From NCBI GenBank assembly GCA_038087875.1, contig CM075989.1, positions 744,001 to 808,000 on the forward strand: a stretch of DNA of 64,000 nucleotides. Direction: 5' to 3'. A program made the translations under genes and the position numbers. The notes beneath the pieces were generated by a model that was not told the origin of the DNA, made no database searches, and saw only the letters and a list, made by a program, of their open reading frames with translations. Below are positions 5,351 to 63,360 of this stretch, piece after piece. The DNA comes from Malacoraja senta. Lineage: Eukaryota. How positions within the stretch are numbered: the stretch's first letter is position 1; every line of letters begins with the position of its first letter.

Positions 5351-5359
5351 ATATTGTTT

Positions 5360-10680: not shown

Positions 10681-13001
10681 TTGGGATGGTCGAAGGGTTG
10701 AGATTTTTGATTGGAGAAAGGCTAACTTTGAGGAGATGAGAAAGGATTTAACAGGAGTGAATTGGGACATTTTGTTTTATGGGAAGGATGTAGAAGAGAA
10801 ATGGAGGACATTTAAAGGTGATATTTTAAGAGTACAGAATCTTTATGTCCCTGTTCGGTTGAATGGAAGTAGTAAAAATTGGAAAGAGCCATGGTTTTCA
10901 AGGGAAATTGGACACGGTTCGGAAAAAGAGAGAGATCTACAATAATTATAGGAAGCATGTAAATGAGGTGCTTGAGGAGTATAAAGAATGTAAAAAGAAT
11001 CTTAAGAAAGAAATTAGAAAAGCAAAAAGAAGATATGAGGTAGCTTTGGCAGGTAAGGTGAAAGTAAATCAAAAGGGTTTCGACAGCTATATTAATAGCA
11101 AAAGGATAACAAGGGATAAAATTGGTCCATTAGAGAGTCAGAGTGGACATCTATCTGCAGAGCCAAAAGAGATGGGGGAGATATTGAACACTTTCTATTC
11201 TTCGGTATTCACCAAGTAGAAGGATATTGAATTATGTGAGGTAAGGGAAACAAGTAGAGTAGCTATGGAAATTATGAGATTCAAAGAAGAGGAACTACGG
11301 ACACTTTTGAAAAATATAAAAGTGGATAAGTCTCCAAGTCCTGACAGGATATTCCCTAGGACATTGAGGGAAGTTAGTGTAGAAATAGCAGGGGCTATGA
11401 CAGAAATATTTCAAATGTCATTAGAAACGGGAATGGTGCCGGAGGATTGGCGTACTGCGCATGTTGTTCCATTGTTTAAAAAGGGTTCTAAGAGTAAACC
11501 TAACAATTATAGACCTGTTAGTTTGACGTCAGTGGTGGGCAAATTAATGGAAAGGATATTAGAGATATTATATATAAGCATATATAAGGGCCTGATTAGG
11601 AACAGTCAACATAGATTTGTGCCTGGAAGGTCATGTTTGACTAATCTTCTTGAATTTTTTGAAGAGGTTACTAGGGAAATTGATGAGGGTAAAGTGGTGG
11701 ATGTTGTCTATATGGACTTTAGTAAGGCCTTTGACAAATTTCCACATGGAAGGCTGGTTAAGAAGGTTCAATTGTTGGGTATTAATGGTGGAGTAGCAAG
11801 ATGGATTCAACAGTGGCTGAATGGGAGATGCCAGAGAGTAATGGTGGATGGCTGTTTGTCAGGTTGGAGGCCGGTGACTAGTGGGGTGCCTCAGGGTCTG
11901 TGTTGGGTCTACTGTTGTTTGTCATATTCATCAATGAACTGGATGATGGTGTGGTAAATTGGATTAGTAAGTATGCAGATGATACTAAGATAGGTAGTGT
12001 TATGGATAATGACATAGATTTTCAAAGTCTACAGAGAGATTTAGGCCATTTGGAAGAGTGGGCTGAAAGATGGCAGATGGAGTTTAATGCTGATAAGTGT
12101 GAGGTGCTACATCTTGGCAGGACAAATCAAAATAGGACGTACATGGTAAATGGTAACGAATTGAGGAATGCAGTTGAACAGAGGGATCTAGGAATAACTG
12201 TGCATAGTTCCCTGAAGGTGGAATCTCATGTAGATAGGGTGGTAAAGAAAGCTTTTGGTGTGCTGGCCTTTATAAATCAGAGCATTGAATATAGAAGTTG
12301 GGATGTGATGTTAAAATTGTACAAGGCATTGGTGAGGCCAATTCTGGAGTATGGTGTACAATTTTGGTCGCCAAATTATAGGAAAGATGTCAACAAAATA
12401 GAGAGAGTACAGAGGAGATTTACTAGAATGTTGCCTGGGTTTCAGCAACTAAGTTACAGAGAAAGGTTGAACAAGTTAGGTCTTTATTCCTTGGAGCGCA
12501 GAAGGTTAAGGGGGGACTTGATAGAGGTCGTTCAAATGATGAGAGGGTTAGACAGAGTTGACGTGGATTCGCTTTTTCCATTGAGAGTAGGGAAGATTCA
12601 ACCAAGAGGACATGATTTCAGAATTAAGGGACAGAAGCTTAGGGATAACATGAGGAGGGACTTCTTTACTCAGAGAGTGGTAGCTGTGTGGAATGACCTT
12701 CCAGTGGAAGTGGTGGAGGCAGGTTCTATTTTATCATTTTATAAATAAATTGGTTAGGTATAGAAACATAGAAACATAGAAACATAGAAAATAGGTGGAG
12801 GAGTAGGCCATTCGGCCCTTCGAGCCTGCACCGCCATTCGATATGATCTTGGCTGATGATCCAACTCAGTAAAATGACAGGAAAGGAATGGAGGGTTATG
12901 GTCTGACTGCAGGTAGATGGGACTAGGGGAAAATAAGTGTTCGACTAGAAGGGCCGAGATGGCCTGTTTCCGTGCTGTCATTGTTATATGGTTATATGGT
13001 T
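10681..13001 (+). mobile_element. 5'-truncated CR1 LINE inserted in the L1 endonuclease region
   Basis: NYRPVSLTSVVGK, DFSKAFD, GVPQG, KYADD, LERRRLRGDLI; (GGTTATAT)n tail; L1 sequence resumes at ~13002. Confidence 0.93.
12759..12871 (-). mobile_element. Short CR1 3'-end with (CTATGTTT)n tail nested in a CR1 3' UTR
   Basis: (CATAGAAA)n followed by ATAGGTGGAGGAGTAGGCCATTCGGCCCTTCGAGCC, same family as 15718 and 47937. Confidence 0.85.
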
Positions 13002-14435
13002 AAAGAGAATATTCCTTCTATTCATCCATGCATAAAACGTATACACGTGTTGACTATTTTCTGGTGGGCACAAAATTAATACCTTTTACAACAAATCCCA
13101 AATACCATAAAAATATTATTTCCAATCATTTTCCTCTAACCTTCTGCCTAAAACTAGAAGGAATGTACAATAAAAAAACATTCTGGAAATTTAATCCTCA
13201 AATATTAACTGACCCAGCTTGCTGTGAATATCTAAAACAACAAATGGAATTGTTTTATGAGACAAATGATACACCAGGTATTTTGGCTTCGTTATTATGG
13301 GAATCTTTTAAGGCCTTTATTAGAGATTCTATTATGTCATATCAAGCATATCAAAATAAAAAGAACAGGACGGAACAACTGGAATTAGAAGAACAGATCA
13401 GACAGCTGGAGTCAGAAAATGCTATAAATCCTTCTATGTATAAACATAATAACATAGCAATATTAAAATTCAAGTTAAATCAAATTCTCTCCGCAAGAGT
13501 TATCAAGCTATTTCAAATTACTAAACAGAAAAAATTTGAATTCGGCGACAAACCGCATAAACTTCTGGCACGTCAGTTGAGAAAAATGGAAATAGATCAT
13601 ACTATTCAAAAAATTAGATCAGTAAAAAGGTCAACTATTTACACTCCCTAAAGATATTAACGAAAGATTTGTACAATTCTATCAAAATTTATACACATCT
13701 AAAACTTCAGTAGAAACGATAAAAATTAAAAACTTCCTCGACAATTGTAATCTTCCGTCACTTAACGTGGCGGAACGTGAAGAGTTAGGAGCGCAGATCA
13801 CAATAAAAGAGATTGAAGAGACTATTAATTCATTGAAGAATGGTAAAACGCCAGGCCCAGACGGGTTTAGTACTGAATTCTATTAAAAAAATTATGATTT
13901 AATCTCCCCGCGTTTACAATCCCTTTATTTACACGCATTTAAAAACAGACACTACGACAAACTTTAGCCGAATCAACTATTACACTGATACCAAAAAAAA
14001 TAAAGATTTCGAAGGGCCGGGATCATATAGAGCAATTGCCCTGCCAAATACAGATCAGAAAATATTAGCTAAAACCTCGCAAGAAGACTAAGTAAATACA
14101 TTAATAAATGAATACATTCTGATATAACTGGGTTTATACCCAAGAGACACTCATTCAACAACTTGAGACGCCTGTTTAATATAATGTACTCACATAGAAC
14201 GATAAAAGAAGACATTAATTATTTCATTAGATGCAGAAAAAGCATTTGACCAAGTAGAATGGAAATATCTTTTTACAGTATTGCAAAAATTTCAATTAGG
14301 AGAAAACTTTATTTCATGGATAAAGTTGCTATATGACAAGTCGACTGCCAGAATACTGACTAATCAAATACTCTGACCTAAATTTTAATTATCCAGGGCC
14401 AATAGACAGGGGTGTGCACTAACACCTCTGTTATT

Positions 14436-14463
14436 GTTAACTCCGTGCTGTTATGGTTATATG
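14436..14463 (+). mobile_element. ~28-bp CR1 3'-tip insertion in the L1 RT
   Basis: TCCGTGCTG...TATGGTTATATG resembles the tail at 12969-13001; flanked by GTTATT at 14430-14435 and 14464-14469. Confidence 0.7.
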
Positions 14464-15717
14464 GTTATTTGCCCTTGCGATTGAACCTTTAGCAGAAAGT
14501 ATAAGAGTACATCTGAATATTCATGGCTATAATACTAAATATTCTAACAATAAAATATCATTGTATGCAGATGATGTACTACTATATATCACCAATTCCC
14601 AAGTTAGCATTCCAAACATACTAAATCTTATAGAGGAATTCGGTTCCTTTTCAGGATGTAGAATAAACTGCAACAAAAGTGAAGTTATGTCAATAAAGCC
14701 TCAAGATCCGACACACCTTCTAAAATTTCCTTTTAGAATTGCTACGGAAAAATTTAAATATCATGGAGTTTACGTAACTAGAAAACATACTTCTCTATTT
14801 CAAACAAACTTTCCACCATTAATTACAAAACTAAATGCCCTTATTCAATTTTGGAAAACGCTTCCGATTTCCCTCATAGGTAGAATAAATGCCATAGAGA
14901 TGATCTTCCTTCCACAAATCCTGTACCTATTTCAATCAATACCGATTTATCTCCCTAAACATTAAAACAAAAACTCGATTCTGTGATCACAAACTTTATT
15001 TGGGATTTTAAAACACACAGAATCGACATCTATGTAAACCCAAAGAAACTGGCGGGTTGTCTCTCCCTAATTTATTTGTACTATTACTGGGCAACGAATA
15101 TTAAAAACTTAATCTATTGGATGGACAACACATGCCAACAGGTAAACTGGTTAATAATGGAGAGAGAAGATTGTTCGCCTTTTAATATAGGCGCGATTCT
15201 TCTCTCTCCAATAAATCTGAAGAAAACAGTATATGAGAAAAAGCCGATTATCCATAGTACCTTACGAATCTGGACACAAGTGGTCAACCCTTAAACTGAG
15301 AAATTTATCTCTTCTCTCACCAATCGTCAATAATCCCTCATTTAAGCCATCTATTTTAGACAAGGCATTCACATACTGGGAAAGATTAGGAATGAAAAAA
15401 CTGGGAGATCTTTATTAGATGGGAACTCATAGTTGAAAAGTTGAAAGGTAGCCAATAATTTAGATATCTTCAAATACAAGTCTATTTGAAATCATATCCC
15501 CAAGACTGTCAATATATGGTTCCAGACATACTAGACGATTGCATGAATAGAAACTCGGATTCAAATAAGTTAATATCGTACCTTTATAATACCCTTTTAA
15601 ATATACAAACCCCTTCATCGGAAGTAATTAGACGAGCTTCGTAAGATGAACTCGGCCTAACAATTTTAAAAGATATATGGGAGGAAAGTCTTCTATGTAT
15701 ACACAACTGTTCTCTTA

Positions 15718-18700
15718 ACATAGAAACATACAAAAATAGAAACATAGAAAATAGTGCAGGAGTAGGCCATTCGGCCCTTCGAACCTGCATGGTTGATCAT
15801 GCAACTCAGTATCCTGTACCTGCTTTCTCTCCATACCCCCTGATCCCTTTAGCCACAAGGGCCACATCTAACTCCCTCTTAAATATAGCCAATGAACTGG
15901 TCTCAACTACATTCTGTGTCAGAGCATTCCAGAGATTCACCACTCTCTGTGTAAAAAATGATTTTCTCATCTCAGTCCTAAAATATTTCCCCTTTATCCT
16001 TAAACTGTGACCCCTTGTTCTGGACTTCCCCAACATCGGGAACAATCTTCCTGCATCTAGCCTGCCCAACCCCTTAAGAATTTTGTAAGTTTCTATAAGA
16101 TCCCCCCTCAATCTTCTAAATTCTAGCGTGTACAAGCCGAGTCTATCCAGTCTTTCTTCATATGAAAGTCCTGCCATCCCAGGAATCAGTCTGGTGAACC
16201 TTCCGATGAACCTTCTCTGTACTCCCAGAGAAGGTTCATCAGAAGGTTCACCAGACTGATTCTGGTGAACCTTCTGGTGAACATTCTCTGTACTCCCTCT
16301 ATAGCAAGAATGTCCTTCCTCAGATTAGGAGATCAAAACTGTACGCAATACTCCAGGTGTGGTCTCACCAAGTCCCTGAACAACTGCAGTAGAACATCCC
16401 TGCTCCTATACTCAAATCCTTTTGCTATGAATGCTAACATACCATTCGCTTTCGCGACTGCCTGCTGCACCTACATGCCTACTTTCAATGACTGGTGTAC
16501 CATGACACCCAGGTCTCGTTGCATCTCCCCTTTTCCTAATCGGACACCTTTCAGGTAATAGTCTACTTTCTTGTTTTTGCTACCAAACTGGATAACCTCA
16601 CATTTATCCACATTATACTGCATCTGCCATGCATTTTCCCACTCATCCAGCCTATCCAAGTCATCTTGCAGTCTCCTAGCATCCTCCTCACAGCAAACAC
16701 TGCCCCCCAGCTTCGTGTCATCCGCAAACTTGGAGATGTTGCATTCAATTCCCTCGTCCAAATCATTAATATATATTGTAAATAGCTGGGGTCCCAGCAC
16801 TGAGCCTTGCGGTACCCCACTAGTCACTGCCTGCCATTCTGAAAAGGACCCGTTTACACCTACTCTTTGCTTCCTGTCTGCCAGCCAGTTCTCTATCCAC
16901 ATCAATACTGAACACCCAATACCGTGTGCTTTAAGTTTGTATACTAATCTCTTATGTGGGACCTTATCGAAAGCCTACTGAAAGTCCGGATATAACACAT
17001 TCACTGGTTCTCCCTTATCCACTCTACTAGTTACATCCTCGAAAAATTCTATAAGATTCGTCAGACATGATTTACCTTTCATAAATCCATGCTGACTTAG
17101 TCCAATGATTGCACCACTTGCCAAATGTGCTGCTATCCTATCTTTAATAACTGACTCTAGCAGTTTCCCCACTACCGATGTTAGACTAACTGGTCTGTAA
17201 TTCCCCGTTTTCTCACTCCCTCCGTTTTTAAAAAGTGGGGTTCCATTAGCTACACTCCAATCCACAGGAACTACTCCAGAATCTAAAGAGTTTTGAAAAA
17301 TTATCACTAATGCATCCACTATTTCCGGGGCTACTTCCTTAAGTACTCTGGGATGCAGCCTATCTGGCCCTGGGGATTTATCGGCCTTTAATCCATTCAA
17401 TTTAACTAACACCTCTTCCCGGCTAACCTGGATTTCACTCAGTTCCTCCATCTCATTTCACCCCCGGTCCCCTGCTATTTCCGGCAGATTAATTATGTCT
17501 TCCTTAGTGAAGACAGAACCAAAGTAGTTATTCAATTGGTCTGCCATGTCCTTGTCGCAATGATCAATTCACCTGTTTCTGACTGCAAAGGACCTACATT
17601 TGTTTTAACAAATCTTTTTCTCTTCACATATCTATAAAAACCTTTGCAGTCAGTTTTTTATGTTCCCAGCCAGTTTTCTTTCATAATCTGGTTTCCCTTT
17701 CCTAATTAAGCCCTTTGTCCTCCTCTGCTGGACTCTGAATTTCTCCCAGTCCTCTGGTAGGCTGCTTTTTCTAGCTAATTTGTATGCTTCATCTTTTGTT
17801 TTGATACTATCCCTGATTTCCCTTGTTATTCATGGATGCACTACCTTCCCTGATTTATTCTTTTGCCAAACTGGGATGAACAATTGTTGTAGTTCATCCA
17901 TGCAGCCTTTAAATGCCTTCCATTGCATATCCACCATCAACCGTTTAAGAATCAATTGCCAGTCTATCTTGGCCAATTCACGTCTCATACCCTCAAAGGT
18001 ACGTTTCTTTAAGTTCAGAACCCTTGTTTCTGAATTAATTATGTCACTCTCCATCCTAATGAAGAACTCAACCATATTATGGTCACTCTGGCCCAAGGGG
18101 CCACGCACAACAAGACTGCTAACTAACCCTTCCTCATTACTCAATACCCAGTCTAGAATAGGCTGCTCTCTCGTTTGTTCCTCTACATGTTGGTTTAGAA
18201 ACTATCCCGCATACATTCCAAGAAATCCTCTTCCTCAGCACCCCTGCCAATTTGATTCACCCAATCTATATGTAGATTGAAGTCACCCATTATAACTGTT
18301 TTACCTTTGTTGCACGCATTTCTAATTTCCTGTTTGATGCCATCCCCAACTCCACTACTACTGTTAGGTGGCCTGTACACAACTCCCACTAGCGTTTTCT
18401 GCCCCTTAGTGTTTCGCAGCTCTACCCATATTGATTCCACATCCTCCAAGCCAATGTCCTTCCTTTCTATTGTGTTAATCTCCTCTCTAACCAGCAACGC
18501 TACCCCACCTTTTCCTTTCTCTCTATCCCATCCTGAATATTGAATATCCCTGGATGTTCAGCTCCCAGCCTTGGTCACCCTGGAACCATGTCTCCGTGAT
18601 TCCAACTATATCATAGTCATTAATAGCTATCTGCACGTTCAACTCATGCACCTTATTACGAATGCTCCTTGCATTGAGACACAAAGCCTTCAGGCTTGTC

Positions 18701-22205: not shown

Positions 22206-22770
22206 ATTTGGTTGAATATGTCTGGATGATTGTAGATAGTATTCTGAACAGTGTTGCATGAGTTATTGTCTGACACAAAGCCAATTGGGACTGTGGTCCG
22301 ATTAAGGGCAATGGACATGTATGTAAGTTAGCATCATGTTGTTAATAGCCCATGTGTTTTCTACCATTTATGGTTTATCTGTTTAAGTGTTTCACACACA
22401 GATTGGTTTACTGCATGAAACCACAGAACTTCAAAGGCTTCACGTAGTCACTCACGTGACTTGGATATACAATAGAAAGATTAAGTGAGAACTTACCGTT
22501 TGAAGTTTGATCTTTATTTTATGAGAAGTTGAAGTGAGGGACTACGTGCCCTCCAATCCAAACCCTGGAATCTCATAAAGATTCGGTAAGTCAAGGGTTA
22601 TTAATCTTTCTATAGTTTAAGTTCGTGCAAGCGGTCTGTGGTTTCATACAGTTGCACTGAAGATTGACGAGCATGCGGGCAGGTGGGCTCTTCAGGTAGT
22701 CCCTCACTTCAACTTCTCATAAAATAAAGATCAAACTTCAAACGGTAAGTTCTCGTTTAATCTTTCTATT

Positions 22771-23671
22771 AAACTGCACTTAAATTTGGTGGCTTTGCAC
22801 CCTGCTTGAAGTGGCATGAAACTGCACTTGAATTTGTTGGCCTTGCACCCTGCTTGAAGTGGCCTGAAACTGGACTTGAGTTTGGTGGTCTTGCACCCTG
22901 CGTGAAGTGGCATGAAACTGCACTTGAGTTTGGTGGACTTGCACCTTCTTGAAGTGGCATGAAACTGCACTCTTCAAGTGGCCTAGCACCCTGATTGAAG
23001 TGTAATGAAACTGCACTTGAGTTTGTTGGCCTTGCACCCTGCTTGAACTGGCATGACACTGTACTTGAATTGGGTGGCCTTGCACCCTGGATGAAGTGGC
23101 ATAACAATGCACTTGATTTGGGTGGCCTTGCACCCTGCTTCAAGTGGCATGAAACTACACTTGAATTAGGGGGCCTTGCACCCGGCATGAAGTGCCATGA
23201 AACTGCACTTGAGTTTGGTGGCCTTGCACCCTGCTTGAAGTGGCATAAAGCTGCATTTGAGTTTGGTGGCCTTGCACCCTGTTTGAAGTGGCATGAAACG
23301 GCACTTGAGTTTTGTGGACTTGCACCCTGCCTGAAGTGGCATGAAACTGCACTTGAGTTTGTGGCCTTGCATCCTCCTTGAAGTGATAGGAAACTGCACT
23401 TGAGTTTGATGGCCCTGCACCCTGCTTGAATTAGCATGAAACTGTACTTGAATTTGTTGGCCCTGTACCCTGCTTGAAGTGGTAGGAAACTGCACTTGAA
23501 TTTGATGGCCCTGCAACCTGCTTGAAGTGACAGGAAACTGCATTTGAATTTGGTGGCCCTGCGCCCTGCTTGAAATGGCAGGAAACTGCACTTGGATTTG
23601 GTGGCCTTGCACCCTTCTGGAAGTGGCAAGAAACTGCACTTGAATTTGGTGGCCTTGCACCATGCTTGAAG
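22771..23671. repeat. 48-bp minisatellite, right arm (~19 units)
   Basis: Same unit as 5360-5846; resumes in register (GTGGC|ATT...ATT|AAACTGCAC). Confidence 0.97.
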
Positions 23672-24108
23672 TAGATACTCCAGTAGATACGGTTAGGCGG
23701 GGTACACGTGAACCTCTGTGTCAGCTGGAAGGACTGTTAGGTTCCCTGGATGGAGCTGAGAGAGGAGGTATAAGGAGAGGTGTTACATTTCCTGCGGTTG
23801 CAGGAGAAAGTACCTTGGGATGTGGTTTGGGTAGGAAGGGGGGAGTGAAGCAAGGTGTTACAGAGGGAGTGGTCTCCGCGGAAGATGGAGAGGGGTCAGG
23901 GCTCGAAATTAGAGGTTGCCCGGGTGCCACTGACCACTCAAAGCGCCGCCGGGCAACCTAAACACCGAGTCATTTTGCCCGGCTTGGCAACCAGATACTG
24001 GTTTGTACCGAAGATAGACACAAAAAAATGTAGTAACTCCGGGGGTCAGGCAGCATCTCTGGAGAAAAGTAACGCGATGCTTTGCGTCGGCGGTGACGGC
24101 TGTATTGC

Positions 24109-34423: not shown

Positions 34424-35313
34424 TCACGACTTTACTGTTTTAATGATCATATTTAGTGGGTATTGCAACCCACTCTTGAACTCCTGTCTGAACCTCCTCT
34501 GGGTCACTCCATAGATACACGTGTTGATGCAGCAACTCAGCAGTAGCAACATGTTGCCACTTTCCTGGAGAGCAGCGCCGGATACAAATTTACCGTTTGT
34601 AAATTGGACATAGAAGATATTTACAACATATGTTGCCCACAACAAGATAGAACTTCCTGAGATAGCAAATAGTAAAATGATGGACATCTTCCGACTCTCC
34701 ATTTCTGGGTCTTTCTGATTCTCTCCTTTGCCACGGACCTGCAATCTCTCGCGGACTCTGTTTGAAGCCAGAATGTGTCGAACAGTCAGAACGTTTAGCA
34801 ACAACATCAGAAGGAAGGGGACACATGGGTTTAACATACGGCCAATCCAAGCAAATGCTATCCATGAAGAATTGGAATAAAAGCTTAACTTAATATTACA
34901 GAACCATTGGACATCATTAACAATATATAAAGGCTCGTGTACAAAGTACCAGGGAATGTTTCTCACAGAACTCACAATACAAATCGTGAAGATAACAATC
35001 GCCCCCATTTTCTCAGTGCAGTAGCTTGTTTTCAGCTTCTGGCAGCAGATGGCTACAAACCGATTGAAGGTGAACGCAACTGTCAGCCAGACTGAGCTGT
35101 CTCTGACAGCAAAGATAAGAGTTATTCTGAAGCTACAGGATGGAGTGGTATAGAGGAAGAAAACAGGGAAATAAATGATACTAATCCTGTTTAGTATCAC
35201 TGCTGTGACAAGGACAAGTGTATCTGCCATCGCCATGCTCATCAGGTACCAAGTGATACATCTCGACAGTCCGCACCTTCCCCGAGCCAGGATCACCATT
35301 GTCACCAAGTTAC
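34424..35313 (-). CDS. GPR139-like class A GPCR, copy 1, exon 2 (spliced protein 319 aa)
   Basis: 7TM hydrophobic pattern; MAMAD (TM2), FNRFVAIC (DRY equivalent), WFC, LNPCVPF, SCCINTCIY; acceptor TTTCTTTTTAAATGAG; phase-1 join gives GVPGNLV. Confidence 0.9.
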
Positions 35314-35829
35314 CTCATTTAAAAAGAAACAAACAAACAATTAATTCGACCAATCATTACCGGGCAATGGCAAATTGTACAAATAATTAACTGGGTGGAT
35401 AATTCAGTTTAGTTTCACTTAGTTTATTTAGTTTAGTTTAGTTGAGAGATACTTTGTGGAAAAAAGGCTCTTCGGCCCACCGAGTCCACACCAACTAACG
35501 ATAACTCCAACACAAGTTCTATGTTATCCCAATTTCACATCCTACACATTAGAGGCAATTAGCAGAAGCCATTTAACTTACAGACTTGCACGTCTATAAA
35601 ATATGGGAGGAAACCGGAGCACCTGGAGAAAATCCATGCATTCGCTGATAGAATGTAGAAACTCAATACAAGGTAATAAATGTGCAGATTGGGTCTGTAC
35701 TAATTGGAGAGAGAAGTGATCTTATTGCAGTCTGTAGGGTTCTGGGGAAGCTTGATGCAGTAATATTGAGATGATATTTCTGTTGTTGGAAGATTCAGAA
35801 CAAGGGGGAAAGTCTCATGTGAATCTTTG

Positions 35830-35975
35830 GCTATTTCTGGGTGTTTCTGTTTCTCTCCTTTTCCATGGACCTGCAATTCCCCACGGATTCTGGTTGCAGT
35901 TGACATGTGCCTGGTGCCACACTAAGGTCAAAGGTGACAAATGGGTTTAATGTACATCCAATCCAGACATCTGCC
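35830..35975 (-). pseudogene. Decayed TM5-ICL3 fragment of a third GPR139-like paralog
   Basis: VWIGCTLNPFVTF and RIRGELQVHGKGEKQKHPE vs AWIGRMLNPCVPF and RVRERLQVRGKGENQKDPE. Confidence 0.8.
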
Positions 35976-36459
35976 TTCCCAAAGACTAACCGGGTCTTTG
36001 ACAGCTTGTAGGTTGTAACTAATGCAGAGCACCAGGAATCATTGGCCCCTGTTAATTTATTATTCATTGAACACCAACTGTTCGGTGTTCAAGAGTATCG
36101 ATGGCCCAAAGGTAGGTGGAAGGGCATGTTACAATGAGGATATCGTGATCCTGCCATAGGATATAGATAGGATGAGTGAATGCCCAACAACATGGCAAAT
36201 GGTGTTTAATTACGGAAAGTGAGAGGCCATGCACATTGGAGGAATCAAAAGGACTCATTTAAAAGAAGAGAGGTTGCAATAAGTGAAGTAAAGACACCAG
36301 CAGCACCTGCTAATTATTTGTGATTCAAGCATAAAAATACCAGGACAATCTGCACGTTTCTCATTTGCAATCCTTCTCCATTGTCTTATTGTCTCCATTG
36401 AAAAGGGAAAGTGGGAACCATTTACAATGTTTATACCGTTGGTTCAGACCTCTAACTGC

Positions 36460-36770
36460 ATGTAAGCCTTGCTTTCCCTCCCGCTCCATCACACCCCCTT
36501 CCCAGTTTTCCGACCAGTCTGACTGTCTCCAATTACATTTTATCTCTGTTTGCTTTGTTGTTCCCTTCTTCCAGCTAACAATGATATCTTCTACATTTTC
36601 TTTGATCAGAATCCCTTTGTCCTGTTTGACATATTACACTTCCTTATCTATGTATCTCCCTCTCCCCTGACATCAGTCTGAAGTAGGGTCTCGACACAAA
36701 ACATCACCCATTCATTTTCTCCAGAGAGGCTGCCTGTCCAGTTGAGTTACTCCAGCATTTTGTGTCTACC
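36460..36770 (+). mobile_element. Penelope pseudo-LTR fragment; others at ~37105-37220 (-), ~44815-44945 (-), ~54270-54514 (-)
   Basis: CAGTCTGAAGTAGGGTCTCGAC...GAGTTACTCCAGCATTTTGTGTCTA, homologous to 24675-24768. Confidence 0.7.
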
Positions 36771-38029
36771 ATTTAGAAATAATTGTTAAAATGTTGCACT
36801 ATTTTGATCACCTTATTTAATGAATAACATGGTCACATCGGTGTAACAATTCCTTCTTGCCCTTACCACTAAAATGCTTTGGAACTTTCCTTAATCGTAT
36901 TCACCAGTGGTATTTCATGTGGTAATTTCTTTATTAAATGTTCACAGAGTAAACAGGTAAAGTGTGTGCTGATGCCAGTATAGCAAATGTGATAACTTTA
37001 TTGGAGAAGGGCTGCAAGGGTTAGTTAGGAAATTAATGATCCATGTCAAGCAAGGTTTTGCCAAAAGTTCTGCAGGGAAGAATTGAAGTACACAGGAGGG
37101 ACAAGGAACTGCAGATTCTGGAATATTGAATAAAATGCAAAGTGCTGGAATAACTGATGCAGCATTGGTCGAGGGAATGGACAGGCAATGTTTGGGATCA
37201 GGACCCTTCTTCAAACTGAATTAATGTACCCATGGTGAGGGTGTAAGTATGTAATGAATCAACTATTAAGACAAAATTCCACACTTATATTTTTCTCTTA
37301 TCACTACCTGTTGTTCTGGTGCAGGATTTGATTATGCTCATAGATATTACGATTTCACTGTACAGCGCACAAATAATTTCACGGCATCGCAGCACAATTA
37401 ACAAAAATAAACAAAAATCAACACCAACGGACAGTATGGTTCTGTTAGAGGACAAACTTGTCTGAGCGATTCGTGTGAAGTTATCAAATGCATTAAATAT
37501 AGTTTGCATGGAAGTCAGTAAGGCATTACTGGAGGCATATAGGACACTGGTCTGAAAGATGAGAGCACATGGAATCTAAGGGAAGTTGTGAAATTGTATC
37601 CAATATCTGAGTTGTAATGGGACACATAGATTGATGGTAGAGATTTAACTCTGTAAGTGGATGCCTATGACCAGTGGTGTACCACATGATGTTGAGACAA
37701 GTTACTGGATATACATTAATGATTTTGATTGAATGCAAGAGCTATAATCAAATCTTTTGAGAAAATGAAAATTGGTAGCATTGCTGATGGTGAAGAGGAT
37801 TGCTGTGGCTACAGGATGATGTTGATCAGTTGATGAGATGGGTAGATAGTAGGAGATGGAAGCCAATTCTGACAAGTGCAAGTTCATGCACTTTGAGATG
37901 ACCAAAGTGGGTAGAATATATATAAAATAAATGGTAGGGGTCTTGTGAGTATTAAGAAACAGAGGGGTCTCAGTGCACAACTAAGGATCCATGAAGACAG
38001 CAGCAAAGGTAGATTACGTGATGAAAAAT

Positions 38030-39200
38030 GCAGAGGGGATATTTGATAAGGTCCCACATAGGAGATTAGTGGGCAAAATTAGGGCACATGGTATTGGGGG
38101 TTGAGTGCTGACATGAATAGAGAAGTGGTTGGCAGACAGGAAATATAGAGTAGGGATTAACGTGTCCCTTTCAGAATGGCAGGCAGTGACTAGTGGGGTA
38201 CCGCAAGGCTCGCTGCTGGGTCCGCAGCTATTTACAATATACATCAATGATTTGGATGAAGGGATTCAAAGTAACATTAGCAAATTTGCAGATGACACAA
38301 AGCTGGGTGGCAGTGTGAACTGTGAGGAGGATGCTATGAGAATGCAGGGTGACTTGGACAGGTTGGAGGAGTGGGACGATGCATGGCAGATGAAGTTTAA
38401 TGCGGATAAATGTGAGGTTATCCACTTTGGTAGCAAAAACAGGAAGGCAGATTACTATCTAAATGGCGTCAAGTTGAGAAAAGGGGAAGTACAGCGGGAT
38501 CTGGGGGTCCTTGTACATCAGTGTATGAAAGTAAGCATGCAGGTACTGCAGGCAGTGAAGAAAGCGAATGGCATGTTGGCCTTAATAACAAGTGGAATCG
38601 AATATAGGAGGAAAGAGGTCCTTCTACAGTTGTACAGAGCCCTAGTGAGACCACACCTGGAGTATTGTGTGCAGTTTTGGTCCCCTAATTTGAGGAAGGA
38701 CATTCTTGCTATTGAGGGAGTGCAGCGTAGGTTTACAAGGTTAATTCCCGGGATGGCTGGACTGTCATATGCCGAGAGAATGGAGCAGCTGGGCTTGTAC
38801 ACTCTGGAGTTTAGATGGATGAGAGGAGATCTCATTGAAACATATAAGATTGTTAAGGGTTTGGACATGCTAGAGGCAGGAAACAGGTTCCCGATGTTGG
38901 GGGAGTCCAAAACCAGTGGCCAGAGTTTAAGAATAAGGAGTAAGCCATTTAGAACGGAGACGAGGAAACACTTTTTCTCACAGTGAGTGGTGAGTCTGTG
39001 GAATTCTCTGCCTCAGAGGGTGGTGGAGGCAGGTTCTCTTGATGCTTTCAAGAGAGAGCTAGATAGGGCTCTTAAAGATAGCAGAGTCAGGGGATAAGGG
39101 GAGAAGGCAGGAACGGGGATTATCAGCCATGGTCACATTGAATGGCTCAAAGGGCTGAATGGCCTACTCCTGCACCTATTGTCTACTGTCTACTGTCTAC
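38030..39200 (+). mobile_element. 5'-truncated CR1 in the intron of GPCR copy 1
   Basis: 285-aa RT C-terminal ORF (GVPQGS, FADD, LVRPHLEYC); CTATTGT-type tail. Confidence 0.93.
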
Positions 39201-41261
39201 CACTGCCGTGCGGATACTGGACTTTGTCTGTGGAAATGGTGTATTATGTAACTGAGAACTACATTTTGCACATTGTATAATTCCCTTTGCTCTACTTATT
39301 CTACATGAGTTTGTCTTCATTGCATTTATAGCATTATCTGATCTGATTGGAAAATTGGCATGCAAAACAAAGCTTTTCACTGTAGCTCCATATATGTGAT
39401 AATAATGAACCTAACCCTAAACCTGTCATAAAGTTACATACAGTACATCAATCAGGTCGCCCCCCAGTGTCCCAGAGATAACAATTCAAGTTTACCCATC
39501 TATGGCTAATACTTTCTAATTCAGGCAATTTTCTGATGAACCTCTTCTTCACCTCTCCAAAGCCTCCACATCCTCCCTGTAATACAGATGATAATCCCAA
39601 TGTGGCCTAAACAAATAAAACTGCAACATGACTTGCTCACTCATATACTCAATGCCCCAACTGATGAAGGCAAGCATACAATATCATAATCATAATAATA
39701 CTTTATTAGCCAAGTATGTTTTGCAACATACGAGGAATTTGATTTGCCATACAGTCATACCAATAAAAAGCAACAAAACAAACAAAATACATTTTAACAT
39801 AAACATCCACCACAGCGACTCCTCCACATTCCTCACTGTGATGGAAACGAAAAAAATCTCTTCCCTTCTTTGTTCTCGAGGTCGGGGGCCTCGAGCCTTC
39901 CGTTGTCGGGGGAATCTTGGCTCCAGCAGTCGGCGGTCGAGCCCTCGGCATCAGGGCGACTAAGCTCTCACATCGGGGGGGATCTCAGCCCCCCTGCGCC
40001 AGGCGATCGGACCCCGGGTCAGGGCTGGTCGAACCTTCTGCGATTTTGGAGCTTCCTGACATCAGTCTCTACCCAAGACTGCGAGCTTCTATATGTTGAC
40101 AGCCACAGGCCGTGTGTGGGAGCATCGATCCCATGCAAGGGATCGCAGGCTCTGATGGTAAGTCCACGGCCCCGCGGTAGGGCTTGAAGTCAGTCTTGAG
40201 CAAGGCCGCTAGCTCCATGATGTTAGGCCGCAGAGCGACCGGAGATACAATCCGGAAAACAATCGCATCTCCGGCAAGGTAAGAGACAAAAAAAAGTTTC
40301 CCCCGACCCCCCCCCACCCACATAAAACAAACCAGAGAACATTAACAAATACTTTAAAAACACACAAAAAATAACAAAAAAGATGAAAAGACAGACAGAC
40401 CGTTGGCGAGGCTGCCATCTCTGATGAATATGCCTTCTTTACCACTCTATCTACTTGTGTCGGCTCTTTAAGTGAGTTATTGCCAGAGACCACATGATTC
40501 CTCTGTCCATCAATGCTGTTAAGGTTATTGCCATTAACTGTATACTTTCCCTTCATATTCGACCTCCCAACGAACCACACTTCACACTTGATTAAACTCA
40601 ACCTGCCATTCCCACCCATATCTGCAGCTAATCAGTTATTACATTGTATATTTTGACCACCTTCCTCACTGTTCGCAACTCCACCAATTGTTTGAAAGAC
40701 ATTTGGACAAGTACATGGACAGGGAAGTGTTATCAGAACGTGGGTCAAATGCAGGTGAATAGTATTGGCATTAGAGGGCATCATAGATGAGATGGGCTGA
40801 AGGGCCTAAATTAGCACTATATAACTCCTTGAATCTCTGTGTTTAGTATAATTTAGGAAATAATTGGGGGCAAAGGACTGCTATATTTAGCAAAGACTCA
40901 AAATAAGCCAAATTTCATAAAGAAACATGAGAAATACGATGAGGTTATAGCTTACCATGTGTACCAATAACGTGGTTTAAATGTTCAAACTGCATAGACA
41001 ACATTTTGTGAACGGACACATTACATGAAGCCTGCAAATATTGTTATCATCATATAGAATGGCCCACATACGGATTCGCTGGTCCCAATCAGTGGGAACA
41101 GTTCTAACAAGTAAATTCTGCAATAATTACACTCTGCTTCAATAATGTTGAAATGTTGCTTCCTCTGGGATCAGATTCAATGTATTCAGTCATAACGTGT
41201 AGAGAGCAACGAAGCATTTCAAATTGGTCTACACAGTTCATCATTAGTACCAGACTCTTAC

Positions 41262-41331
41262 CTGGAACCCCCAACATTGCCAGAACAAGATAATAAATTC
41301 CATACACTTGACCGTTCACTTGTCCGTGCAT
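41262..41331 (-). CDS. GPR139-like GPCR copy 1, exon 1 (MHGQVNGQVYGIYYLVLAMLGVP)
   Basis: ATG, 70 nt, CCAG|GTAAGA donor; supplies first half of TM1 in frame with exon 2; paralogous exon at 63116-63185. Confidence 0.88.
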
Positions 41332-41374
41332 TTTATTTCACGATGTAGACGTGATCTTCATCTGCAATGCTGAA

Positions 41375-41490
41375 TGTTCAAATATATAATTGTTCAAAGC
41401 CCCGGGAGAGACAATTAGATTGCATCATCCATGAAGCAAACTGATTGGATGACATCACCATTATGTCAGTTCTACTCATTAAAAGGAAGA
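41375..41490 (-). promoter_or_regulatory. Proximal promoter of GPCR copy 1: TATA, O/E-like plus homeodomain pair, CCAAT, CRE-like, extended homeodomain site
   Basis: TATATA ~41382-41388; CCCCGGGAGA 41400-41409; CAATTAG 41412-41418; ATTGG 41444-41448; TGACATCA 41450-41457; CTCATTAAAAG 41475-41485. Confidence 0.65.
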
Positions 41491-45606: not shown

Positions 45607-48600
45607 CTAGACTAAGTGTGACACGTTGGGTCCCAGCTTCACAGGGGAGGGCTGGTCCCCCAATGCAATATTCCACATCTCCATTAATTCCAATATTGCT
45701 GGTGGGGGGGGGGGGGTGGTTTCTGGAGCACTAGCTTGGGTGTTGTCAGCTAAGGGACTGGTTTCCGGAGGGCTAGTATGGACATTGTGGGCCAAATGGA
45801 TTCTTGGGCTGGCAGCTCAGTCACTCAGGCCTGGCAGGCTGGCAGCTCAGTAACTTAGGCCTGGCCAGCTGGCAGCTCAGAAACTGCCATACATTTTGCC
45901 CAAAACAGGTGACAGAGAGAAGGGGAGAGGGTGGAGAATCAATTTTAGACATTTTCATCTTTTTTTTTACAGCAATGAAGGTGGAAAGTCTATCCTTGCA
46001 TGGATCTCTGGATGGGCTAGCATAGGTGTTGTGGGATGAAGAGACTGGTTTCCAGTGGGCTACTATGGACATTGTGGACTGAATTGATTCTTCGACTCGC
46101 AGTTTAGTGAGTCATGACTGGTGGGCTGGCAGTTCACTAAGTCATGGCTGGTGGGCTGGCACTTCAGTCACTTACAGCTGGTGGGCTGGCAGTTCATTTA
46201 CTCGTGGCTGGTGGGCTGGTAGTTCAGTGACCTATGGCTGGTGGGCTGGCAGTTCACTTACTCATGGCTGATGTGCTGGCATTCCAATCACTCACAGCTG
46301 GTGTGTTTGTAGTTCACTCATTTACCCCTCCTCCCTTCACCCTCCACTCTACTACTTGCCATTCCCTCCCCCCCCCCCACGCATTTGATCTCCCCCCTAT
46401 GCACTATGAGTGGCTCTCCTACAGCACAACTATTCCTGCCTATTAGGTTCCCATTGTGAGGAAGAACACACAGGCATGGCAAGTGGAAAAAGGATTTATT
46501 AAAGTTTAAAATGTGAATGACTTTTAAAACATAACAACAATTTAAATGTTAAAGATGAGATTTATTAGGTTCAGTTTTTTCTAGTTGTGTCTCTTGTTCT
46601 GTTCTGCTGCTCACTGCCTCTTGATATCTCTTTGCTGTTGATCAAAACAGATACAATTTTAATATAGAGAGATTGAGCGGTCAAATTTTAACAAAGAAAA
46701 TCTGAGAATTTACCTCAAAAGCCATCATTGAGTGCAGGCCAGGCAGCAAATCCAATCTCACACCACTTCAAGCGGAGTGCAGGCCAGGCAGCAAATCCAA
46801 TCTCACAGCACTTCAAGCGGAGTGCAGGCCAGCACACACACACACACACACACCCTCCACCTCACGGACACATACACTCACACACACATTCACACTCACA
46901 CAGACTCACACACACATACACTCACACAGACTCACACACAAATACACTCACACAGACTCGCACACACATACACTCATACAGACTCACACACACATATACT
47001 CACACAGACTCACGCACACATACACTCACACAGACTCACACACACGTACACTCACACGGACTCACACACACATACACTCACACAGACTCACGCACACATA
47101 CACTCACACAGACGCACGCACACATACACTCACACAGTCTCATGCACACATACACTCACAGACTCACACACACTACACACACACAGACTCACACACACAT
47201 ACACTCACACAGACTCACACAGACTCACACACACATACACACAGACACACACACATACACACACAGACTCACACACACACTCACACACATACACTCACAC
47301 ACTCACATTCTCCACCTCACACTCACACCCTCCACCTCACACTCACACACACACCTTCCACCTCAAACTCACACTCACACCCTCCACCACACACTCACAC
47401 CCTCCACCTCACACTCACACCCTCCACCTCACACTCACACCCTCCACTTCACACTCACACCCTCCACCTCACACTCACACCCTCCATCTCACACTCACAC
47501 TCACACACACGTAAACACACTCACACTCACAGACTCATACACACACGTGCATACACACACACATACACTCACAGACACACACACACACACACACTCACAC
47601 ACACTCACACACACTCACACATACACTCACACACTCACATCCTCCACCTCACACTCACACCCTCCACTTCACACTCACATTCACACCTTCCACCTCAAAC
47701 TCACACTCGCACCCTCCACCACACACTCACACCCTCCACATCACACTCACACCCTCCACCTCACACTCACACACTCACACACACGTACACACACACTCAC
47801 ACTCACAGACTCATACACACACTTGCATACACACACACATACACTCACAGACGCATGCACACACATTCACAGACTCATACACACACACACACATACTCAC
47901 ACACACATATACACACACATACACACACACACTCACACATAGAAACATAGAAAATAGGTGCATGAGTAGGCCATTCGGCCCTTCGAGCCTGCACCGCCAT
48001 TCAATATGATCATGGCTGATCATACAACTCAGTATCCTGTACCTGTCTTCCCTCCATATCTTCTGATCTCTTTAGCCACAAGGGCCACATCTAACTCCCT
48101 CTTAAATATAGCCAATGAACTGGCCTCAACTACTTTCTGTGGCAGAGAATTCCACAGATTCACCACTCTCTGTATGAATTTTTTTTACTCATCTCGGTCC
48201 TAAAAGACTTCCCCCATATCATTAGACTGTGACCCCCTTGTTCTGGACTTCCCCAACATCGGGAACAATCTTCCTGCATCTAGCCTGTCCAACCCCTTAA
48301 GAATTTTGTAAGTTTCTATAAGATCCCCTCTCAATCTTCTAAATTCTAGCGAGTGCAAGCCGAGTCTATCCAGTCTTTCTTCATATGAAAGTCCTGCCAT
48401 CCCAGGAATCAGTCTGGTGAACCTTCTCTGTGCTCCCTCTATGGCAAGAATGTCTTTCCACATCCACTCACAGACTCATACACATACACACACTCACACT
48501 CACATACACACAGACACACACACACTCACACACACTGATTCACATGCACACTCACACATACTGACTCACACACACACACACACACACACACTCACAGATG

Positions 48601-50969: not shown

Positions 50970-52581
50970 AGGATAATAAATCCCCTGGGCCTGATGGTCT
51001 GCATCCCAGGGTCCTCAGGGAGGTGGCGCTAGAAATAGTGGATGCATTGGTGATCATTTTCCAATGTTCAATAGATTCAGGATCAGTTCCTGTGGATTGG
51101 AGGATAGCTAATGTTATCCCACTTTTCAAGAAAAGTGCGAGAGAGAAAACGGGGAATTACAGACCAGTTAGCCTGACTTCGTTGATGGGAAAGATGCTGG
51201 AGTCAATTAGTAAAGAGGTAATAATGGGGCATTTGGACAGCAGTGAAAGGATTAGTCCAAGTCAACATGGATTTATGAAAGGAAAATCATGCTTGACTGA
51301 TCTTCTGGAATTTTTTGAGGATGTGACAAGTAAAATGGATGAAGGGGAGCCAGTGGATGTAGTGTATCTAGACTTTCAGAAAGCCTTTGATAAGGTCACG
51401 CACTGGAGACTGGTGACTAAAATTAGAGCACATGGTATTGGGGGTAGGGTGTTGACATGGATAGAAAATTGGTTGGCAGGCGGGAAGCAACGAGTAGGAG
51501 TGAACAGGTCCTTTTCAGAATGGCAGGCCGTGGCGAGTGGAGTGCTGCAAGGCTCGATGTTGGGGTCGCAACTGTTTACCATATATATTAATGATTGGGA
51601 AGAGGGAATTAGGAGCAACACGAGCAAGTTTGCGGATGACACAAAGCTGGGTGGCAGTGTGAACTGTGAAGAGGATGTTAGGAGGTTGAAGGGTGACCTG
51701 GACAGGTTGAGTGAGTGGGCAGATATGTGGCAGATGCAGTATAATATAGATAAATGTGAGGTTCCACTTTGGCAGCAAAAACATGGGGGCAGATTATTAT
51801 CTCAATGGGGTTAGGTTAGGTAAGGGGGAGGTGCAGGGAGGTGCAGGGAGGTGCAGGGAGACCTGTGTGTCCTTGTACACCAGTCACTGAAAGTTGGCAT
51901 GCAGGTACAGCAGGCAGTGAAGAAAGCTAATGGAATGTTGGCCATAACAAGATGATTTCAGTATAGGAGTAAAGAGGTTCTTCTGCAGTTGTACAGGCTC
52001 TGGTCAGACCACATCTGGAGTAATTTGTACAGTTTTGGTGTCCTAATTTGAGGAAGGACATCCTTGTGATTGAGGCAGTGCAGCGTAGGTTCACGAGATT
52101 GATCCCTGGGATGGCGGGACTGTCATATGAGGCAAGATTGAAAAGACTAGGCTTTTATTCACTGGAGTTTGGAAGGATGATGGGGATCTTATAGAAACAT
52201 ATACAATTATAAAAGGACTGGACAAGCTAGATGCAGGAAAAATGTTCCCAATGTAGGGCGAGTCCAGAACCAGGGGCCACAGTCTTAGAATAAAGGGGAG
52301 GTCATTTAAGACTGAGGTGAGAAAAAACAATTTCACCCAGAGAGTTGTGAATTTGTGGAATTCCCTGCCACGGAGGGCAGTGGAGGCCAAATCTCTGGAT
52401 GGATTTAAGAGAGAGTTAGATAGAGTTCTAGGGGCTAGTTGAATCAAGGAATATGGGGAGAAGGCAGGCACGGGTTATTGATTGGGGACGATCAGCCATG
52501 GTCACAATGAATGGCGGTGCTGGCTCGAAGGGCTGAATGGCGTCCTCCTGCACCTATTTTCTATGTTTCTACGTTTCTATG
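50970..52581 (+). mobile_element. 5'-truncated CR1
   Basis: NYRPVSLTS, YLDFQKAFD, FADD; (CTATGTTT)n tail; 10-bp triplication GGGAGGTGCA at ~51826-51860. Confidence 0.93.
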
Positions 52582-57019: not shown

Positions 57020-57908
57020 TCACGACTTTACTATTTTAACGATCATATTTAGTGGGTATTGCAACCCACTCTTGAACTCCTGTCTGAACCTCCTTTGGGT
57101 CACTCCATAGATACAAGTGTTGATGCAGCAACTCAGCAGTAGCAACATGTTGCCACTTTCCTGGAGAACAGCGGCGGATACAAATTTACCGTTTGTAAAT
57201 TGGACATAGAAGATATTTACAACATAGGTTGCCCACAACAGGATAGAACTTCCTGAGATAGCAAATAGTAAAATGATGGACATCTTCCGACTCTCCATTT
57301 CTGGGTCTTTCTGATTCTCTCCTTTGCCCCAGACCTGCAATCTCTTGCGGACTCTGTTTGAAGCCAGAATGTGTCGAACAGTCTGAACGTTTAGCAACAA
57401 CATCAGAAGGAAGGGGACACATGGGTTTAACATACGGCCAATCCAAGCAATGCTATCCATGAAGAATTGGAATAAAAACTTAACTTAATATTACAGAACC
57501 ATTGGACATCATTAACGATATATAAAGGCTCGTGTACAAAGTACCAGGGAATGTTTCTGACAGAACTCACAATACAAACTGTGAAGATAACAATCGCCCC
57601 CATTTTCTCAGTACAGTAGCTTGTTTTCAGCCTCTGGCAGCAGATGGCTACAAACCGATTGAAGGTGAATGCAACTGTCAGCCAGACTGAGATGTCCCTG
57701 AGAGCAAAGATAAGAGTTATTCTGAAGCTACAGGATGGAGTGGTGTAGAGGAAGAAGACAGGGAAATAAATGATACTAATCCTGTTTAGTATCACTGCTG
57801 TGACAAGGACAAGTGTATCTGCCATCGCCATGCTCATCAGGTACCAAGTGATACATCTCGACAGTCCGCATCTTCCCCGAGCCAGGATCACCATTGTCAC
57901 CAAGTTAC
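57020..57908 (-). pseudogene. GPR139-like GPCR copy 2, exon 2, 1-bp frameshift before TM5
   Basis: ~97% identical to copy 1 by eye; GCAATGC at 57447-57453 vs GCAAATGC at 34851-34858; 889 vs 890 nt. Confidence 0.85.
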
Positions 57909-61822: not shown

Positions 61823-62876
61823 CAATAGACAATATACAATAGGTGCAGGAGTAGGCCATTCGAACCTTCGATCTGTGATCACATTGATCATGGCTGATCA
61901 TCCACATTCATTATCCCATTCCTGCCTTCTCACCATATCCCCTGACTCCGCTATCTTTAAGAGCTCAACCTAACTCTCTCTTGAAAGCATCCAGAGAATT
62001 GGCCTCTACTGTCTTCTGAGGCAGAGAATTCCACAGATTCACAACTCTCTGGATGAAAAAGTTTTCCCTCATCTCTGTTCTATATGGCCTACCCCTAATC
62101 TTAAACTGTGACCCCTAGTTCTGGTCTCCCCCAACATCAGGAACATGTTTCCTGCCTCTAGCGTGTCCAATCCCTTAATAATCTTACATGTTTCAATTGG
62201 ATACCCTCTCATCCTTCTAAATTCCAGAGTATACAAGCCCAGTCGCTACATTCTTTCAACATATGACAGTCATAGAAACATAGAAACATAGAAAATAGGT
62301 GCAGGAGGAGGCCATTTGGCCCATCGAACCAGCACCGCCATTCATTGTGATCATGGCTGATCGTCCCCAATCAATAACCCGTGCCCGCCTTCTCACGAAT
62401 TAACCTTGTGAACCTACGCTGCACCCCCTCAATAGCAAGAATGTCCTCCTCAAATCTGGCGACCAAAACTGCACACAATTCTCCAGGTGTGGTCTCACTA
62501 GGGCCCTGTACAACTGCAGAAGGACCTCTTTGCTCCTCCACTCAACTCCTCTTGTTATGAAGGTCAACATACCATTAGCTTTCTTCACTGCGTGCTGTAC
62601 CTGCATGCTTAATTTCAGTGACTGATGAACAAGGACACCCATATCTTGTGTACTTCCCCTTTTCCTAACTTGACACCATTCAGATAATAATCTGCCTTCC
62701 TGTTCTTGCCACCAAAGTGGATAACCTTACATTTTCCATATTAAACTGCATCTGCCATGCATCAGCCCACTCACCCAACCTGTCCAAGTCACCCTGCATC
62801 CTCATAGCATCCTCCTCACAGTACACACTGCCACCCAGCTTTGTGTCATCTGCAAATTTGCTACTGTTACCTTTAA
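61823..62876 (-). mobile_element. CR1 3' fragment with a nested CR1 tail (62271-62395)
   Basis: FADD and LVRPHLE motifs; two tail types. Confidence 0.88.
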
Positions 62877-63115
62877 TGAGCCTGCAAATATTGTTATCAT
62901 CGTATAGAATGGCCCACATAAGGAATCACTGGTCCCAATCAGTAGGAACAGTTCTAACATGTACATTCTGCAATAATCATACTCTAGTTCAATAATGTTG
63001 AAAATATGCCTCCTTTGGGAACAGAATCGATGTATTCAGTCATAACGTATAGAGAGAGAGCAAAGCAGCAGTTCAAATTGGTCTACACTGTTGATCATTA
63101 GTACCAGACACTTAC

Positions 63116-63185
63116 CTGGAACCCCCAAAGCTGCTAGAAGTAGATAATAAATTCCATACACTTGGCCGTTCACTTGTCTGTGCAT
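63116..63185 (-). CDS. GPR139-like GPCR copy 2, exon 1 (MHRQVNGQVYGIYYLLLAALGVP)
   Basis: ATG, 70 nt, CCAG|GTAAGT donor; 62/70 identical to copy 1 exon 1; downstream exon is frameshifted. Confidence 0.82.
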
Positions 63186-63244: not shown

Positions 63245-63360
63245 GTTCAAATATATAATTGTTCAAAGCCCCGGGAGAGACAATTAGATTACATCATCCA
63301 TGAAGCAAACTGATTGGATGACATCACCATTTGTGTCAGTTACACTCATTAAAAGGAAGA
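63245..63360 (-). promoter_or_regulatory. Proximal promoter of GPCR copy 2, same motif set as copy 1
   Basis: TATATA ~63252; CCCCGGGAGA 63269-63278; CAATTAG 63281-63287; ATTGG; TGACATCA; CTCATTAAAAG 63345-63355. Confidence 0.65.

Follow-up and report, generated by a model that had tools for sequence, protein, structure and literature searches.

A predicted promoter of a skate receptor gene and its large GPR139-related elasmobranch family of candidate chemosensory receptors

Genes and other features of the locus

The window (the whole analysed stretch of 64,000 nucleotides from the skate Malacoraja senta, numbered from its first letter) carries two related receptor genes on the minus strand, gene A and gene B. 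The interval 41375-41490 is the predicted core promoter of gene A, which belongs to a very large elasmobranch family of GPCRs (G-protein coupled receptors) of class A that are related to GPR139. Spliced from its two exons (Table 1), gene A encodes a class A GPCR of 319 amino acids, for which the only Pfam match is 7tm_1. Its ATG is placed at 41331; the frame of a closer ATG, near 41361, is closed by a stop codon. The exon 1 junction is the same in the paralogues and in the true GPR139 of the skate. By alignment, gene A retains F3x33, W6x48 and N7x38.

Two details of genes A and B are uncommon among their relatives. The GAG splice acceptor of gene A (35314-35316) follows a T-rich tract and is found at the matching place of gene B, unlike the CAG or TAG acceptors of the first 40 paralogues sampled. 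The DRY-type motif of TM3 reads NRF in both genes as against the usual DRF of the family (N occurs in 3 of 50 members).

The second exon of gene B has lost one base in a short T run near 57450-57460, and the resulting frameshift represents either a pseudogene or an assembly error. Gene B, a paralogue with the same order of promoter motifs as gene A, is 86% identical to it over 540 bp, and a third copy with the same order of promoter motifs lies 52 kb away. Because of their recent shared ancestry, the three genes were counted once; the earlier note on this DNA had already cautioned that recent paralogues sharing motifs are not independent evidence. The rest of the window includes tandem repeats, a CA-rich tract and fragments which we take to derive from LINE reverse transcriptases. 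Very high depth in genomic runs was seen at 38005-39239.

Table 1. Features of the window discussed in the text
Feature	Positions	Strand	Remarks
Gene A exon 1	41262..41331	-	70 nt; start codon, a short N-terminus and the greater part of TM1; GT donor in phase 1
Gene A intron	35314..41261	-	About 5.9 kb, filled with repeats; unusual GAG acceptor
Gene A exon 2	34424..35313	-	Open frame; remaining part of the 7TM receptor
CCTTTTAATGAG, similar to the H/P extended homeodomain site	41475..41486	-	Confined to the small clade of gene A
TGATGTCA, presumed bZIP/CRE-like word	41450..41457	-	Motif match
CCAAT	41444..41448	-	At background level in the family
TGATGCAAT, presumed C/EBP-ATF composite match	41419..41427	-	Directly adjoins the CTAATTG site
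CTAATTG, homeodomain-type site	41412..41418	-	CTAATT enriched across family promoters
TCTCCCGGGG, O/E (Ebf)-like pseudo-palindrome	41400..41409	-	Family-wide element
TATATA, predicted TATA box	41383..41388	-	TATA-like word common across family promoters
Gene B promoter	63252..63356	-	Motif order as in gene A; motif scan
Gene B exon 1	63116..63185	-	
Gene B exon 2	57020..57908	-	97% identical to gene A
Two tandem repeat arrays	5357..5848; 22768..23672		Repeat of roughly 48 bp, 83-87% alike between the two arrays; long spurious reading frames
Presumed LINE reverse transcriptase-like fragments	2561..4746; 11265..12748; 13028..14965; 15806..17451; 38042..39185; 51185..52580; 61824..62877		
Low-complexity repeat	47142..47942		Long, CA-rich

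Promoter motifs of gene A

An ordered set of motifs had been reported in the earlier note within about 155 bp of the ATG. All of them are present on the minus strand, 52-155 bp upstream of 41331, and the same order, noted near 63245-63360, does recur in gene B. Its statement that 10 of 13 positions match the extended homeodomain site AACTTTTTAATGA, with the last nine bases exact, is correct against the motif as printed in PMC7804114. CTAATTG and TCTCCCGGGG are separated by a 2-nt spacer, and TCTCCCGGGG ends 11 bp upstream of the TATA box. An additional motif, TGATGCAAT, had been overlooked. It matches the C/EBP-ATF composite, and TGATGTCA reads as a bZIP/CRE-like word.

No change falls within 41360-41421 among the differences listed for contigs of three related organisms (14 more are unlisted). 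Many changes are listed in the flanks: the same organisms differ in the 5' UTR, in the sequence farther upstream and in the extended homeodomain site, and the changes in CCTTTTAATGAG in related genomes lie at 41478, 41484 and 41486. Taken singly, the motifs of the gene A promoter do not exceed chance; enrichment appears across the 33 promoter groups described below.

Size, range and kinship of the receptor family

A degenerate DNA motif derived from TM3 has 814 exact matches in the assembly, and its reversed control has none. This motif is present in only 37 of 60 family genes sampled earlier, and extrapolation therefore gives about 1,300 loci, haplotype duplicates and pseudogenes included; such duplicates are represented by identical scores on C25 and C3819. 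The two-exon genes are clustered on many chromosomes. Of the second exons of 40 held-out loci, 27 were intact by a strict test and another 4 have open frames of at least 292 amino acids; roughly 25-33% of these loci are broken. In being large and clustered, and in the birth and death of its genes, this GPCR family resembles the olfactory receptor families of vertebrates. A full-length protein comprising both exons (P0246) is encoded on a public contig of 1,236 nt, which is too short to hold the introns seen (at least 567 bp), so that some member is likely to be spliced.

Searches of protein databases with two family queries returned 1,456 and 2,449 relatives. The named best matches all belong to sharks and rays, and nearly all have been named automatically as 'probable G-protein coupled receptor 139'. 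Chimaeras and bony fish do not appear among the best 120 matches of the two queries, a range that does not imply their absence from the family.

The earlier description of these receptors as GPR139-like holds for kinship but not for identity with GPR139 itself. The best PDB match is GPR139, with an E-value of 1e-18 as against 7e-12 for the next receptor, and the position of the TM1 intron is shared, which supports a GPR139-related lineage. In a fold search with the model of a homologue (pLDDT 83), class A receptors of the peptide type scored much alike, with GPR139 in third place, and the result does not discriminate among them. The skate has a separate GPR139 gene, found once in the genome, with the same phase-1 intron in TM1, and 77 family proteins are 23-33% identical to its product, compared with at least 41% identity to each other in 400 sampled pairs. 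The GPR139 of catshark is 81% identical to that of mouse (PMC13200729). The ligand-binding residues of GPR139 are F3x33, H5x43, W6x48 and N7x38 (PMC5430874); at the corresponding positions, placed by alignment, F was found in 8, H in 11, W in 43 and N in 14 of 50 family members. Orthology with GPR139 was rejected on the grounds of low identity, the separate single-copy gene and binding residues that are mostly not kept. Assignment to the canonical odorant receptors was also rejected, on the basis of the exclusive 7tm_1 match in Pfam and the coding intron.

No publication on this family was found in the literature, where other names or subscription journals may hide one. In their accessible parts, a survey of vertebrate rhodopsin-like GPCRs lists just small extra GPR139/142 subtypes and leaves sharks unmentioned (PMC6504862), a review of GPR139 does not mention sharks (PMC12208981), and a paper on the whale shark describes GPCRs as scarce in cartilaginous fishes (PMC8455134). 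The available text of two further papers treats known receptor families only (PMC6368271, PMC11979771).

Selection on the receptors

In eight young paralogues almost all amino acid change is located in the N-terminus, the outer helix ends and the extracellular loops, and pairwise counting gave a dN/dS of 1.84 for the outer and 0.27 for the inner regions. Four other clades gave outer and inner values of 0.28 and 0.18, 0.15 and 0.14, 0.47 and 0.27, and 0.79 and 0.16, respectively; the outer value is thus the higher in three of them and equal in one. An outer dN/dS above 1 was obtained in one of the five clades, and the pairwise counts may include gene conversion. It seems that, in the young clade above all, the ligand pocket has diversified and the intracellular face has been conserved.

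Motif enrichment across family promoters

One hundred paralogue loci were fetched, 60 as a first set and 40 held out. Exon 1 with its ATG was recovered in 50 of the 60 and in 25 of the 40, and it was not found in six 10-kb extensions of loci lacking it. After L195 had been dropped for an unreliable start, 74 usable loci and three genes of the window clade yielded 77 promoters, which fall into 33 mutually non-alignable groups (22 first-set and 11 held-out). The synonymous difference among 21 representatives of the first-set groups has a median of 0.73 and a minimum of 0.54. The O/E-like score, a home-made one and not a measured matrix, is the match to the O/E consensus TCCCNNGGGA (maximum 8, half credit for transitions, threshold of at least 6.5 at -140..-60). 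Background was provided by 3,344 windows, with dinucleotide shuffles as a second control. Windows and thresholds for the 11 held-out groups were fixed in advance; the FOX-like word was scored there with the earlier window, outside the pre-set list. Binomial p-values are too small, because the promoter groups share ancestry.

The O/E-like site was found in 22 of the 33 groups compared with 15% of background windows and at most 12 groups in shuffles. In the first 22 groups the count was 14 (background 14.8%, at most 9 in 300 shuffles), and 8 of the 11 held-out groups had the site. The top motif discovered de novo by expectation maximisation (EM) was TCCC-nn-WGGA-GA, the right half-site of which (WGGA) is atypical. 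A TATA-like word occurs at -110..-50 in 31/33 groups (17% of background), including 10/11 held-out ones; in the first promoter set this predicted box lies 57-97 bp upstream of the ATG. In 21 of 31 promoters, the end of an O/E-like site with a score of at least 6 stands 9-14 bp ahead of the first TATA-like word, compared with 37 of 1,169 background TATA-like words (3%), in a spacing window picked after the data were seen.

The most enriched 6-mer was CTAATT (14/33 groups, background 4.5%), which was weak in the held-out groups, where 3 of 11 equals the shuffle maximum. The FOX-like word TGTTTRY is enriched, with 15/33 groups overall and 4/11 held-out, and TGTTTGT was found in 8/33. Words of bZIP type were present in 11/33 groups overall and, not significantly, in 2/11 held-out ones; TGATGCAA occurred in 5/33 groups (background 0.4%) and in none of the 11 held out. 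Sox-like words were borderline. Among the other words scored in the family promoters, E-box, octamer, E2A, Runx, PU.1, Ets, IRF, NF-kB, GATA, RFX, AP-2, NFI, Meis, POU4F and Atoh/NeuroD-type words, with those typical of B cells and hair cells among them, were not enriched, and neither was TTTTAATGA (1/33 groups). A palindromic ATGAATAATTATTCAT, similar to a POU4F site, stands about 120-140 bp before the ATG of L006 and in this promoter only.

The earlier note proposed a chemosensory family on the strength of such motifs and expected them to be enriched and positionally conserved in divergent paralogues. That expectation is borne out for the O/E-like site, for the TATA box and, in the full set with its weak held-out part, for CTAATT. 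Two of its elements drop out as family signals: the last nine bases of the H/P-type extended homeodomain site occur in 1/33 groups, the site being altered in related genomes, and CCAAT, in 10/33 groups, is not enriched over its background of 27%.

Searched genome-wide, TGATGCAANNTAATTG has 58 matches, 4 of them at known family promoters, and is not specific. A strict composite-plus-TATA pattern was found at five places in the genome, four of which are family promoters, a circular result because the pattern was built from those promoters. The sole non-family match of the strict homeodomain-O/E-TATA pattern (L044, G000:C1:253365134-253365173), behind which no family exon 1 was seen, may belong to the promoter or an enhancer of a different olfactory gene.

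Control promoters of the same genome

Five of seven V2R promoters pass the O/E-like criterion, six have a TATA-like box near the ATG and two contain CTAATT; the tight homeodomain-O/E-TATA geometry was not found in these seven. The FOX-like TGTTTRY word occurs in V2R promoters too (L084 and L087). One V2R of this genome is 99% identical to a named skate protein. Genes of the mGluR type gave 0/3 by the O/E-like criterion. The true GPR139 has neither TATA nor CTAATT in about 600 bp upstream, and its O/E-like words, at -256 and -193 only, lie outside the test window. The crystallin control consists mostly of one near-identical cluster with scores of 6.0-6.5, in which 2/11 promoters reach 6.5, and has little value for comparison. 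Tandem clusters of single-exon genes with beta/gamma-crystallin domains and near-identical upstream regions were observed at L135-L149 (C4533, C3318, C2122, C3887, C2899 and C5837). A search for the olfactory marker protein family gave no match in the genome; it was silent everywhere and does not imply absence.

Candidate function and rival explanations

Judging from the sequence data, there is good reason to expect that the family is chemosensory in some cell type, and its members are probably olfactory receptors of the shark and ray nose. The earlier proposal of a candidate chemosensory family is supported with respect to the enrichment of the O/E-like site and TATA box and not supported with respect to the H/P site, CCAAT and identity with the Greek Island composite. 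In the odorant receptor (OR) promoters of mouse, O/E, homeodomain and TATA motifs are described as typical, and M71 needs both sites (PMC12547500).

In the proposed mechanism, Ebf would bind the O/E-like site about one helical turn upstream of the TATA box, and a homeodomain protein of the Lhx2/Emx type would bind the neighbouring CTAATT. FOX and bZIP factors further upstream would assist, and the combined factors would drive transcription in olfactory sensory neurons, probably of one or a few genes per cell. ATF5 with C/EBP gamma has been proposed to boost the transcription of vomeronasal receptors (PMC8254721); despite this precedent, the C/EBP-ATF word failed the held-out test (0/11). The receptors, as presumed descendants of a receptor related to GPR139, which responds to Trp/Phe, would read amino acids or small peptides in water, and signalling would run through the PLC-TRPC2 route in microvillous neurons of the shark olfactory epithelium. 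The olfactory neurons of catshark are all reported to be TRPC2/Go-positive microvillous cells (PMC10116579), and this cell type would be a fitting one for a receptor whose ancestor was related to the Gq-coupled GPR139, a receptor for amino acids.

Ebf and Lhx2/9 are active in many other neurons, Ebf factors being used by many sensory ones, and Ebf1 is active in B cells. A chemosensory role outside the nose, in taste buds, in solitary chemosensory cells of skin, gill or mouth or in sensory ganglion neurons, comparable to that of Mrgpr-type receptors in mammals, is unlikely, although family size, clustering and pocket diversification suit any chemosensory organ and cartilaginous fishes reportedly lack MAS1-related receptors (PMC8455134). 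Against it stand the combination of O/E, homeodomain and TATA, a known signature of OR promoters (PMC12547500), the O/E-like site shared with skate V2R promoters, and the lack of enrichment of octamer, POU4F-type and Atoh/NeuroD-type words. The FOX-like word and the positive selection on outer surfaces, which fits pathogen sensing, would agree with a diversified immune receptor family controlled by Ebf1 and FoxO in B cells or other leukocytes, and Ebf1 marks B cells of the bamboo shark (PMC11372145). Such a role is nevertheless improbable: no enrichment is seen for E2A, octamer, Runx, PU.1, IRF and NF-kB words, in contrast to CTAATT, which heads the 6-mers; the rows listed in single-cell marker tables of shark immune cells contain no 'GPR139' or 'receptor 139', although sparse genes miss marker thresholds.

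It is quite improbable that the genes encode amino acid or peptide receptors of the brain or neuroendocrine system that have a GPR139-like role and multiplied largely without sensory purpose. The intron position and the closest structure solved, by sequence, do point to GPR139, a habenular receptor (PMC12208981), but the separate single GPR139 gene lacks the family promoter layout, three of the four binding positions vary widely across the family, and about a thousand diversified copies are hard to reconcile with endogenous ligands. Finally, the shared element may be uninformative on tissue, being a site of a core-promoter or unrelated factor that was kept by descent or conversion. The fixed distance to TATA (at 11-13 bp the O/E-like site could belong to another, core-promoter factor, which runs counter to the olfactory reading), the atypical half-site and the common ancestry of all promoters speak for this explanation. 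It is very improbable, given that perfect TCCCATGGGA and TCTCCAGGGA are found in separate clades; flanks no longer alignable among the 33 groups and synonymous sites near saturation indicate that the O/E-like site was kept selectively.

To return to the olfactory reading, the chances are about even that sharks, skates and rays smell mainly by means of an undescribed family of their own, hundreds to a thousand receptors strong and derived from GPR139, with an independently acquired Ebf/homeodomain promoter code and a choice of the one-receptor-per-neuron style. The count given for sharks stands at about 8 ORs, 5 TAARs, 6 ORAs and 35 V2Rs (PMC6368271), and the catshark nose has been explained by V2R/OlfC receptors (PMC10116579). 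The list of the top 50 olfactory genes in the accessible part of PMC11979771 contains no GPCR of any kind and is therefore uninformative here. It is a paradox that animals famed for smell have so few known receptors; at least 800 diversified GPCR loci under a promoter of olfactory type would remove it. If the olfactory reading is true, the repertoire would rival the mouse OR family, and the belief that cartilaginous fishes possess no more than a few dozen olfactory receptors would fall. It would also add an independently recruited family to the olfactory receptors of vertebrates and offer hundreds of compact natural promoters for the study of receptor gene choice. Even if the family is not nasal, a large GPCR expansion hidden under the label 'probable G-protein coupled receptor 139' needs explanation.

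Comparison with known systems

The family shares with GPR139 a coding region in two exons with the phase-1 break at one and the same point of TM1, and W6x48 is mostly kept. Unlike GPR139, the family numbers more than 800 loci and has a variable pocket and a promoter with a TATA-proximal O/E-like site. Like mammalian OR genes with M71-type promoters, it is large and clustered and combines O/E-like and homeodomain sites with TATA in a short proximal region. It differs from them in the coding intron, in matching Pfam 7tm_1 only, in an O/E-like site locked about 11-13 bp before TATA, and in an ATG that follows directly downstream, no 5' non-coding exon being apparent. The extended H/P homeodomain site, matched at 10/13 positions in gene A, is restricted to the gene A clade.

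The composite of mouse Greek Islands consists of TAATTG, one base and then TCTCCAAGGA (PMC5608512). Gene A likewise has TAATTG beside a pyrimidine/purine pseudo-palindrome with an AGGA-type half-site, and the AGGA half-site of the family equals that of the mouse Sfaktiria composite probe. Identity with this composite is not supported, the spacer being 2 nt in gene A and 0-3 nt in the family as against 1 nt in mouse. Gene A has two mismatches to the published pattern, which hardly discriminates because perfect matches occur in 7/33 family promoters and in 10% of the background. The Lhx2/Ebf composite of mouse marks enhancers and is depleted from OR promoters (PMC11643329), in contrast to the family, where the sites lie in promoters.

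The V2R/OlfC genes of sharks and rays resemble the family in the TATA-like box near the ATG (6/7) and the O/E-like site (5/7); they belong to class C, number about 35 in catshark (PMC6368271) and are without the fixed composite geometry. The skate family has a different parent receptor from TAAR, vomeronasal FPR and Mrgpr, is much larger, and is represented by elasmobranchs alone among the best matches listed. As in the family, these three are non-sensory GPCR lineages that expanded in clusters with a diversified pocket.
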